Shown here: positions 48,001-51,000 of the stretch, in pieces
Position numbering within the stretch: position 1 is the stretch's first letter
How the letters are laid out: each line of letters begins with the position of its first letter
From: Stx2-converting phage 86
Sequence record: NC_008464.1
DNA length: 60,238 nt
Reading direction: 5' to 3' (one strand)
Position numbers: made by a program

Positions 48001-51000
48001 TTGGTGGTGTGGTAGGTGGGAGACCCATTTCGACCTGTTTCGGCCTACTTCAATTCGGCAATAGTCCCGCAGGCCTCGCCGCTTTACGTGCGACATATTC
48101 CCGTCCATGAACCCTTCACCACACCCCAAAGTTCACTTTGGTTATTGCGCTTTGTCAGCGCCGTAGATTCATATTCGAATCGTTGTATATTCACCGCCCT
48201 GGTGAGTAATGCGTCCTGCTGATGACGATAATAATGAACCAATAGTTCGACATTATCAAGAACTATTGGTACGAATTTTGGTGATTTATTAACTCTACGA
48301 AGTATGATTCTGATATATAAGGAAATTTATTTTTGAAAATGTGGCTGATGAAGGTTATGCGGCAGGGATCATAACTGCATGGTTTAGCGAGTTACATCAA
48401 TAAATACAATTGGTTATGTTTTTTAGGTGGGGGGATCGTGAGGCAAAGAAAACCCGGCGCTGAGGCCGGGCTAGATTTTAAAGTATTTATCTTTTAGAGA
48501 TGTAGATGTAAAACTTTTCGCCTTTGAAAATTTTTTGTCATCAGAAGGGCTTATGAACTCATCTTTTTTGTAGGGAACCGCTAATGCTGCATCACGTCTG
48601 CGAGGCAGCTTGCTTACTTCCTCGCGCTTTTTCATGATCAGTTATCCTTTAATAACCTATACAGTTTTGTAGGGGTACATCCTGAGGATATTGTTAAGTT
48701 CGTAGCACGCCTTTTCCGCCCATCATCGTATAAACGAAAACCAGTAGTAGACGAATTTTCTGCGTCAAAAACTATAGACAGTATAGCGTCCCCAGACTTT
48801 TTTTGCCATTCGCATGTGCCGTTAGTTGGTTTCGTCATCTGTAGACGCCAGTCAAGAACGCCATCACTTATAGCTGAGAGATCGTTTAGTACATCTAGTA
48901 CGGATTGATATCTTTCATTTGGATCTACATGAATGCATTTGTTCACTATTGTTATTAATTTTTTATGTATATGGGGAGGATACTCTTTTAATGGATAGCA
49001 GCCATTAATTATCGACTCTCTGAGTTGTTCAATCGTGCTAAATGCAGATCTTTCTCTTTCAAAATTATCATGTCCAACACACATTCTATATATGGTTAAT
49101 CCTGCCTGATATATGTCATATGTGAAATTATAATCATTTGTTGATAAAGAAAAATATTCCGGTGGCACATGAAAATGATATCCAAACTCAGGCGCAGCTC
49201 TCGATTCCTCATTGACTAACTGAGATAATCCAAAGTCAGATAGCATGGCCTCATTTCTGTTTGATATCATAATGTTATTAGGTTTTATATCAAAATGCAT
49301 AAGACCTTTTGAGTGTATATGATAAAGTCCACTTAAAAATTGAATGGAATACCGTATTATCTCCCTGCTTGTAAGATTATTTTTTTTCATTAATTGGTTT
49401 AGCGAACCATTATGATAAAATGGCATGGCTATATAGATATTGCTCTCACATTGAGCAGCATACTGAACTTGCACAATATTTGGATGTGCATGTTTATAGA
49501 GAAGCCTTGCTTCATTAAAGTAGTCGTCGTGGTTAGTGTTTTCTTTTTTTTCTATTTCTTTAATCACCAAGTCATGAGCTAGGTGTCTGTCATGAGCCAG
49601 ATATACTTTTGAAAAACAACCCTGTTCTTCTAGATCACTAATCCATTCGAATTCTACATCAGCTCTTTTGTATGGAGTTAGCATCCCCTTACCTCCGCAG
49701 ATAGTGCAGCCAAAACAGCTTCATTTGTTTCAGTTGTAAAACCAGAATTATCGATTCCATTTATATTGCGGTGTGACTTCAATATTTCTTTATACTCGAT
49801 CTCTGTTAGGTTCAATGATGATTTCATGCCAGATTTTCTAATAGTGTAATATTTTCTTACATCACTGCTTGAAAATGCTTCTTGAATAACAGCTTCTATA
49901 TAAAGGCGGTCAATGCTAAGATTATCAGAGTTTGATTCAGTAACGCGTATGGCAGCTAATTCAACATTATATAAATTAAGAATGTCGAGGATGTTATTTC
50001 TCACATACTTTAATTTTTCTGGTGTGTCTAAGGTCGAAGGTATTTTAATAACATCAACACATTTGAGTGCAGACTCATTAGTGCAATATACAACAAAAGA
50101 TGTAACTTTGGGCGCCGCTCTAACACCTAGTATTCTCATTTTTTATATCCTATTTTAGAATCAGGCCGCATCTCTGCGACCATCCATCATCCAAACGTCT
50201 CTTCACTCATCCGAAGAAGCAGCAATCCGGGTCAGCACGCACAAGCTCAAGCGCATCAGTCAGCGAAAGTTCAGTACTGTACTGATGCCATTTCATATCC
50301 TTCCGCATCCAATAGATTTTCCATCTATCCAGAGAACGTATGTACTTGATTCTTGCTGATGGCAGGATGTTTGTTTCACCTGGATTGCCCTGCCACACGG
50401 GGCGCTGTTCGCCGATATCTATCGTTTGGTCATTGATGCTATAAACAATATCCAGTTCATTGCGGATATGTTCAGGCGGCCTTATGCTTTCAATGAATTG
50501 GTGAACTTCTTTTTTTACTGCTTGATATTCAAGGTCATTGAACGCCATCTATCCTCCTTACCCAAACGTCTCTTCAGGCCACTGGTTACCAGCTATGTGA
50601 CGATGAAGTCACGAACTTTTCAGCCACTCCCTTGCCTCGATGTCATCCAGATGGCGAGATTGCTTCAGAATACCAGCTACATACTCCACCTTTGCTACTT
50701 GATGATAAGGCAACGTTATAGGCCTGTGATCCTGGTTAATGCTTGTAAATTGGTATTCTCCATCTCTGTCATAGCCAAGAACCTTAATCATGTTGTGTCC
50801 TTCAACGGTTCTGACAAACACCTCATCACCCGGGAATACTTTGGTGTTAGGCTCAATGAGTACATATTCTCCTGATTTTATTCTGGGCCACATGCTGTCT
50901 CCTTTCACACGAAGACCAAAGGCATCTGGATCATCGCTATAAATTTTGAGCCACCCATCGCGCTCTTCGGTCATCTCGATGGCACCATCAACACCAAGAA

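Follow-up and report, generated by a model that had tools for sequence, protein, structure and literature searches.

Why does a small gene in the immunity region of an Stx phage carry the same 15 bases at both of its ends? The gene is ORF113 (open reading frame 113), which lies behind the repressor gene cI on the minus strand of Stx2-converting phage 86 (NC_008464.1; the whole stretch of 60,238 nucleotides (nt) that was analysed is referred to as the window). The original prediction held that it is bracketed by a perfect 15-bp direct repeat, and this was confirmed by reading the sequence and by pattern search, as CCAAACGTCTCTTCA occurs exactly on the plus strand at 50191-50205 and 50562-50576, while no third copy with two or fewer mismatches was found by pattern search in the 60,238-nt window. 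Read on the gene (minus) strand, the repeat is TGAAGAGACGTTTGG, hereafter called R. Copy A is situated 32 nt past the cI stop codon, its end being 13 nt before the ATG of ORF113, and copy B is situated 1 nt past the ORF113 stop codon. R corresponds to the end of a repressor gene, and it probably serves as a short patch of homology through which cassettes are exchanged by homologous recombination.

Exact repeats of at least 15 nt in the window include only two pairs less than 500 nt apart, i.e. the R pair and one tandem repeat (15 nt apart). An exact 15-mer direct repeat of any sequence at a spacing of 15-500 nt was present in 9 of 400 shuffled windows (approximately 2%), and the uniform expectation for a close exact 15-mer pair is 0.028. 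Taken by itself the R pair is thus suggestive at the level of about 2%, being unlikely, yet possible, by chance. The view that an unrelated 15-mer merely happens to occur twice, for which the same 2% of shuffled windows speak, can be given next to no weight in the light of the relatives, because dozens of phages, as well as diverged homologues from other genera, have the pair at these two gene boundaries; each copy of R is also a mosaic breakpoint.

R and its flanks are the last codons and stop codon of lambda-type CI repressor genes, in which R encodes P-E-E-T-F-G. The cI gene of phage lambda ends with the exact 15-mer as its last codons, and in loci of the IMG/VR database (cited below by their L numbers) R is the end of full-length repressor frames that are 216-259 codons long. 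Perfect identity of the pair in the window is confined to 15 nt, and the common unit in relatives is longer, as approximately 108 of the 120 loci from an IMG/VR scan with the exact 15-mer are related prophage regions where R is embedded in (CA)GTGGCC-TGAAGAGACGTTTGG-GTGA. A degenerate search for PEETFG-coding sequence returned synonymous codons in one third of the matches, which indicates that the nucleotide conservation of R is largely a matter of coding constraint and recent common descent.

Neither copy of R in the window is translated as such. The 933W-type cI stops with TGA at 50609-50611, and the next 16 in-frame codons end in the lambda-cI tail QWPEETFG followed by a stop codon, so that copy A is the fossil of an earlier repressor gene end; the same relic is found past cI in H-19B (L001). 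For a second, older fossil within this interval (TCGTCACATAGCTGGTAA; Table 1), 25 of 27 positions agree with the genuine end of a repressor frame of 262 codons in L230, and the similarity of the window to PhiR12_1 ends exactly after GGTAA, at the last base of this fossil. Lambda itself (NC_001416, L245, ~37190-37245) has, between the end of cI and rexA, the sequence CTGATCGGCAAGGTGTTCTGGTCGGCGCATAGCTGA, reading LIGKVFWSAHS-stop, which looks like the fossil end of the other repressor type. In 933W, H-19B and lambda, the non-coding DNA behind cI is made up of stacked fossil repressor ends, and scattered relics of repressor ends with many different lengths (6-43 codons) occur in these regions. 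In L006 (Lambda_2E9, ~2470-2500), a 933W-type cI relic has an 11-nt deletion in R, giving CCAGT-ACGTTTGG, which shows that a fossil copy of R can be damaged without obvious consequence.

The sequences on the two sides of R are highly promiscuous. A total of 167 exact or near-exact occurrences of R with adequate flanks were clustered by the 37 nt before R (minus the shared CAGTGGCC) and by the 40 nt after R (minus the stop region), and they comprise 23 upstream clusters and 61 downstream clusters in 80 combinations, with the lambda-type end joined to 20 downstream sequences and the 933W/H-19B-type relic joined to 9. Owing to this variety of flanks, the repressor gene end marked by R forms the constant left border of a hypervariable slot, whose accessory genes are co-transcribed with the repressor and which in lambda is the rexAB slot. 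Megablast alignments of the window with phage records end at 50183, 50560, 50581 and 50586, adjoining both copies of R. At 50183, Stx2_EH-type phages share cI, ORF113 and copy B and then differ; at 50560, H-19B-type phages share the 3′ half of cI and R, followed by higBA-like genes; and at 50581-50586 the breakpoints are those of PhiR12 and Lambda_2E9-type phages. These breaks agree with the literature, as the cI-N interval is described in PMC8585504 (citing Degnan et al. 2007) and PMC3564112 as a known hotspot of mosaic diversity holding rexAB, stk, hex and bstA. R thus has the features of a linker sequence, as it is short and conserved between unrelated flanks, lies at gene boundaries (the repressor stop and the start and stop of ORF113) and coincides with breaks of similarity.

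ORF113 together with one R makes up a unit of 371 bp, which is carried by 227 of 5426 complete Escherichia coli genomes. The gene is found behind at least four repressor contexts (933W type, lambda type, SH2026Stx1 type and Salmonella ST160 c2), and ORF113 with copy B precedes four different downstream sequences, three of which also stand directly after repressor-R where ORF113 is absent. L120 differs from L130, L051 and L112 by exactly ORF113 and one R (371 bp), at least 145 nt past R being identical, and a second filled and empty pair is made up of L072, L073 and L111 compared with L005. A further empty site was found in E. coli QA-1986 83 (L128), which contains an XRE-type repressor, one diverged R (TGATTAGACATTTGG), the hairpin, ORF153 and stk, with ORF113 absent. 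The empty site with a single repeat copy, by which the original prediction proposed to check its claim in related prophages, therefore exists, and these precise filled and empty sites support ORF113 as a separately acquired unit. The proposed tie between the repeat and ORF113 applies to the second copy, which goes with the cassette, and fails for the first copy, which is a repressor 3′ end and is there with or without ORF113. Among 61 E. coli-type ORF113 loci, which were fetched by protein and hence independently of R, 59 have copy B with two or fewer mismatches; a scan of genome contigs with ORF113 yielded three loci.

The layout was also followed in diverged homologues drawn from IMG/VR and ten Enterobacterales genomes. 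Given as amino acid identity to ORF113 of the window and mismatches to R in copies A and B, these are Enterobacter L246 (85%; A 2, B 1), L237 (81%; A 1, B 2), Klebsiella L255 (74%; A 3, B 3, with one base different between A and B), L239 (64%; A absent, B 1), L243 (62%; A 4, B 3), L240 (61%; A 2, B 0), Erwinia tasmaniensis L171 (60%; A 2, B 4), Erwinia aphidicola L254 (60%; B 3) and Rouxiella L253 (59%; A 1, B 2). In the six lineages at 59-64% amino acid identity, copy B equals R at 77 of 90 positions against a third-codon identity of 42% (binomial P = 3e-17), the third codon positions of these lineages being 33-49% identical to the gene of the window, and only 1.4% of random 80-nt windows from the same loci reach a match of 11/15 to R. 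To judge from these comparisons, the R-ORF113-R layout is old, and the conservation of copy B greatly exceeds that of synonymous sites. The downstream partners of copy B in the diverged lineages had no counterpart among the loci compared. In Rouxiella badensis (L253, 587-2648), an S24 repressor is followed by two DUF3024 genes (the family of ORF113) in alternation with two genes for DUF333 lipoproteins, and R brackets the second DUF3024 copy only.

Conservation of the flanks is not universal. In the L009/L230 lineage only 7-10 of the 15 positions of copy B still match R, though ORF113 of L230 is 97% identical to the protein of the window, and copy B of Salmonella ST160-type phages has decayed to 10/15. 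Five homologue lineages are without R flanks, and the homologues of Dryocola, Rahnella and Yersinia and one Rouxiella copy lack them, from which it follows that R is dispensable for ORF113, though it is retained in many lineages.

The joint at copy B provides a further line of evidence. Copy B is followed by a stable hairpin (Table 1), and the same GGTCGCAGAGATGCGGCC stem with a T-run is the terminator after the repressor in L106, L039, L048 and L230. In the window, ORF153-stk begins right past the stem, in place of the T-run, an arrangement which looks like an insertion into the terminator. The stem is retained in L128 by compensatory changes (GGCTGC...GCAGCC). In E. aphidicola (L254, 2001-4130), ORF113, R, hairpin, ORF153, stk and a small open reading frame follow each other in the order of the window, and the locus sits behind DinI and DUF333 genes with no repressor before it. 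Amino acid identities between this locus and the window are 60% for ORF113, 86% for ORF153 and 77% for Stk, and such discordant divergence suggests that the joint formed by copy B and the hairpin has been crossed by recombination, being the sole evidence, and indirect, for recombination within R.

Both the decay and the discordance bear on the view that the repeat is an inert scar, i.e. that the 3′ end of ORF113 was joined once, by an ancient illegitimate recombination, to the last bases of a repressor gene and that both copies are neutral relics. The decay of copy B in the two groups of phages named above, the five lineages entirely without R flanks and the scattered repressor-end relics of 6-43 codons are all in keeping with such a history. 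It is nevertheless unlikely, as copy B remains 73-100% identical to R even where the synonymous sites of a lineage approach saturation (third-position identity of 0.33-0.49), as ORF113-R is joined to four downstream partners and such partners are also found after repressor-R, and as ORF113 and ORF153-stk have diverged discordantly across the joint. These observations call for repeated exchange at R or for selection on R; a purely inert scar is possible for this phage and fits the data across lineages poorly.

Exchange at R is the preferred explanation, and it may be outlined as follows. The repressor gene end, conserved for protein coding in many co-resident or co-infecting phages, would constitute a short homology patch, or linker. 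Replacement of the repressor in a 933W-type phage would have left copy A as an untranslated fossil, and copy B most probably goes back to a single illegitimate event which joined the 3′ end of ORF113 to that of a repressor gene. A crossover between R of one phage and R of another, at copy A, or one in the part of the gene coding for the repressor C-terminal domain, would bring the cassette to new repressors, while a crossover at copy B and the often conserved 'RTGATGG...GGTCGCAGAGATGCGGCC' segment would bring it to new downstream genes, and a crossover between copies A and B would delete ORF113 and leave one R. Likely enzymes are the phage single-strand-annealing recombinases (exo, bet and gam) or the host RecA, and the window encodes a YqaJ-type exo, a RecT-family bet and gam. 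For Red-beta, 23-27 bp of identity is reported to suffice (PMC3945230), and this enzyme is reported to recombine diverged sequences efficiently (PMC3945230, PMC2327257). The non-coding copies may be kept because they are refreshed by crossovers with coding copies, or because cassettes which lose their flanks cease to spread. The proposal that the repeat is a signature of short-homology cassette exchange is supported by the above; homologous recombination at R as the mechanism, the enzymes involved and the origin of copy B are inferred.

Several points weigh against this explanation. Among the matches listed for the complete E. coli genomes, none has the exact empty site for the window (933W cI, R, hairpin, ORF153); both halves of an artificial empty-site query occur in 186 genomes, and in the matches listed they are always 371 bp apart. 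L128, which is the empty site nearest to the arrangement of the window, has a different repressor and a diverged R. The perfect repeat is 15 bp long (19-25 bp with the flanks in relatives), i.e. at or below the reported minimal pairing length of Red-beta, so that exchange at R alone should be rare. Some R-ORF113-R units are situated away from repressors, behind DinI or DUF333 genes (L246, L254, L253), and exchange with repressor ends gives them no direct explanation. At ~1950-2520 of their loci, the Kluyvera homologue (L248) is flanked by a 21-nt repeat of the other repressor-end type (TGGTCGGCGCATrGyTGGTGA), and the Yersinia homologues (L251/L257) are flanked by TAGCCCATAG, with a 21-nt repeat, TAACCCACTGCTAGCCCATAG, 168 nt downstream; these repeats hint at a more general process generating repeats. 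Recombination is deduced throughout from static genomes, and the conservation of the non-coding copies could alternatively reflect a function of R.

Such a function would make R a cis element, for instance an RNA or DNA site for regulation or processing which defines the ORF113 message within the polycistronic transcript from promoter PRM, or a two-sided site for protein binding. That both non-coding flanks are kept in diverged lineages, also at the non-repressor loci (L246, L254, L253), would be expected of such an element, yet it is decidedly improbable on the remaining evidence. The stretch 48300-51500 gave no Rfam match at expectation values (E) up to 1, the folding of the intergenic RNA with copy A does not surpass that of shuffled sequences (z = -0.6), copy B is unpaired in the fold, and dyad symmetry is lacking in R. 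In most of its occurrences R is the coding end of a repressor, with synonymous variation, and several lineages of ORF113 lack the R flanks or carry them in decayed form. An operator is contradicted by the presence of R in phages of many immunity types, and both boxA/nut and operator were rejected by inspection, R being on the cI-operon strand between PL and PR in these many types. A repeated regulatory element, which had been named as the other option in the original prediction, was consequently not upheld.

ORF113 is not the only cargo bounded by R. Relatives contain a gene for a 23-amino-acid hydrophobic peptide (MREYLIVG..., MREYLIVGVVTLLSVVAIVLMVA) and one for a 32-amino-acid YoaK-family peptide (NCBIfam NF033821), the stop codon of each being the TGA of R. 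Tandem arrays of such peptides lie behind repressor genes in L062 (7550-7652), L110 (3989-4216), L119 (4319-4420) and L237 (2400-2490). The array of L110 has the order R, peptide, R′, YoaK, R′′, terminator, that of L237 has the order repressor-R, peptide, R, ORF113, R, and L240 contains a further R 363 nt upstream of ORF113. It may tentatively be proposed, as a rather doubtful extension, that fossil repressor ends (R and the ...WSAHSW-stop type) are universal linkers in an array of cassettes, integron-like and recombinase-independent, behind the repressor promoter of prophages. Small defence or membrane-peptide genes (DUF3024, YoaK-like and 23-amino-acid hydrophobic peptides) would be stacked and swapped there and exported to other loci as units bracketed by repeats, and the non-coding linkers would be preserved since only cassettes keeping them spread on.

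Insertion by a dedicated recombinase or transposase, in which R would be the core of an attachment site or a target-site duplication (as with an integron cassette, an insertion sequence or an integrative element duplicating the 3′ end of its target), could also produce an insert flanked by direct repeats. R-delimited cassettes in tandem arrays and the other direct repeats at ORF113 homologues (21 nt in Kluyvera, TAGCCCATAG in Yersinia) point in the same direction. It is very improbable all the same, as there are no terminal inverted repeats around ORF113 or the 371-bp unit, the fold of ORF113 is not that of a recombinase, transposase or nuclease, and the cassette is not accompanied by a gene for such an enzyme. 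In addition, the sequence is the same at all sites and the retained GTGGCC flank is 0-5 nt long, unlike a target duplication of fixed length, and R contains no attC-like imperfect palindrome. A transposon, a miniature inverted-repeat transposable element and a target-site duplication were rejected for lack of inverted repeats and of a transposase and for the non-varying sequence of the repeat, and an integron attC was rejected since R has no dyad or significant fold and GTTTGGG does not fit GTTRRRY. No IntI-type integrase or attI was found, the genes near R in annotated relatives being only repressor, cro, cII, N and accessory genes.

The window belongs to the 933W-type Stx phages, as its region 49600-51400 is 99.8-100% identical to 933W, phi24B, Min27 and JLK-2012. 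The minus-strand operon has the order cI, ORF113, ORF153, stk, ORF54 and intrinsic terminator (Table 1).

Table 1. Features of the cI operon and of the repeat copies in the window, in minus-strand order
Feature	Position	Strand	Basis and remarks
cI, 933W type (helix-turn-helix and S24 peptidase), left anchor of the operon	50609-51316	minus	Pfam Peptidase_S24 and HTH_3; region 100% identical to 933W-type Stx phages
Fossil reading frame, 16 codons and stop, holding copy A	50558-50608	minus	In frame past the cI stop (translation of 50558-50632)
Second, older fossil TCGTCACATAGCTGGTAA	50586-50603	minus	Other repressor type, ending ...FWSSHSW-stop; mosaic breakpoint at last base
Copy A of R	50562-50576	minus	Exact match; untranslated repressor-end fossil, directly 5′ of the ORF113 ribosome-binding site
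ORF113 ribosome-binding site AAGGAGG, between copy A and ATG	50553-50559	minus	Sequence read; conserved before ORF113 homologues (alignment)
ORF113 (933W L0083), cassette cargo	50207-50548	minus	DUF3024; PADLOC candidate PDC-S43
Copy B of R	50191-50205	minus	Exact match; second repressor-3′-end fossil, right boundary of the ORF113 cassette
Stable hairpin GGTCGCAGAGATGCGGCC	50164-50181	minus	9 nt past copy B; fold; no U-tract in the window
ORF153 (L0084), RuvC-like	49678-50139	minus	PHROG match
stk protein kinase	48638-49684	minus	Pkinase match
ORF54, 54 amino acids	48471-48635	minus	PHROG 4063, function not assigned by PHROG
Operon intrinsic terminator	48451-48472	minus	Terminator scan

ORF113 matches DUF3024 (Pfam PF11225) with 108.9 bits against a cut-off of 24.9 over residues 4-113, and it matches PADLOC PDC-S43 over its full length (E 5e-42), on the basis of which it is provisionally identified as a candidate anti-phage defence gene; no mention of DUF3024 was found in the literature searched. 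The structure model (predicted local distance difference test score, pLDDT, of 90) has a small alpha-beta5-alpha fold, for which no recombinase, transposase or nuclease match was obtained. No promoter-like site was found between cI and ORF113 by a consensus-based scan, from which weak signals could escape, and ORF113 has no terminator of its own, the hairpin past copy B lacking a T-run and the operon terminator being located at 48451-48472. DUF3024 proteins end in CFFG-stop (50207-50218 in the window), and the last bases in several lineages are TTTGGGTGA, equal to the end of R and the stop codon (ETFG-stop), which is a 9-nt microhomology between the end of the cargo gene and that of the repressor gene, coincidental or otherwise. 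The stk gene is reported to be co-transcribed with cI and to abort HK97 infection (PMC3564112). ORF54, between stk and the operon terminator, is kept with stk in relatives, including Erwinia.

Other direct repeats were noticed elsewhere in the window. Two exact 30-nt direct repeats, TGTACCAGCAGATTACCAGCAAATTACCAC, 66 nt apart at 52621-52716 within the gene of a 299-amino-acid replication protein, are probably origin iterons. G+C-rich exact direct repeats of 16-30 nt at 17850-18800, with a spacing of 243 nt and multiples thereof, look like the collagen-like Gly-X-Y coding sequence of a tail-fibre-type gene.

Several known systems resemble the R-ORF113-R arrangement in part. Morons are extra genes of lambdoid phages with their own promoter and terminator (Juhala/Hendrix); ORF113 likewise is a single dispensable gene which is found in some relatives and precisely absent from others. 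Unlike morons, it shows neither a promoter nor a terminator of its own, and it depends on the cI operon and is flanked by homology. Integron cassettes are also promoterless single-gene units, separated by repeats and stacked behind one promoter, as in the arrays of relatives with 2-3 copies of R, but the R-cassettes have no IntI, no imperfect inverted repeat of attC type and no GTTRRRY core, and what is repeated in them is part of a gene. Integrated elements such as the phages and islands found in tRNA genes duplicate their target gene at its 3′ end, so that attL and attR have a common core. Here too the insert is at the 3′ end of a conserved gene, with one copy of the end on the gene and a displaced copy beyond the insert; in contrast, the cassette has no integrase, the insert is 356 bp, and the core was probably used by homologous recombination.

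The closest parallels are those within the lambdoid phages. The cI-N slot, as it is treated in PMC8585504 and PMC3564112, is the same place, with co-transcription with the repressor from PRM and with phage-excluding or defence cargo; these reports cover the slot and its cargo, whereas the present case concerns a repeated repressor end which delimits ORF113/DUF3024, a candidate defence cargo. Short conserved boundary sequences were proposed as recombination sites (Susskind and Botstein 1978; Clark et al. 2001, for HK620), according to the summaries in PMC3029335 and PMC2327257. Such lambdoid linkers and R are alike in being short sequences common to dissimilar phages, located at gene boundaries, with different modules on each side and with proposed exchange by general or phage recombinases, and they differ in that the origin of R can be named (the last codons of the repressor), R being coding in some phages, fossil in others and duplicated beyond small cassettes. 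R-ORF113-R is thus a well-resolved new example of linker-type lambdoid mosaicism at a known hotspot, and no new kind of system.

As the region 50150-50620 can be spanned by the polymerase chain reaction, it offers a gauge, in natural prophages, of recombination at 15-25-bp homology. The finding explains the position of a DUF3024/PDC-S43 candidate defence gene behind at least four repressors and before four neighbours, and it provides the long-debated linker model of phage mosaicism with a concrete case at the sequence level, in the medically relevant immunity region of Stx phages.

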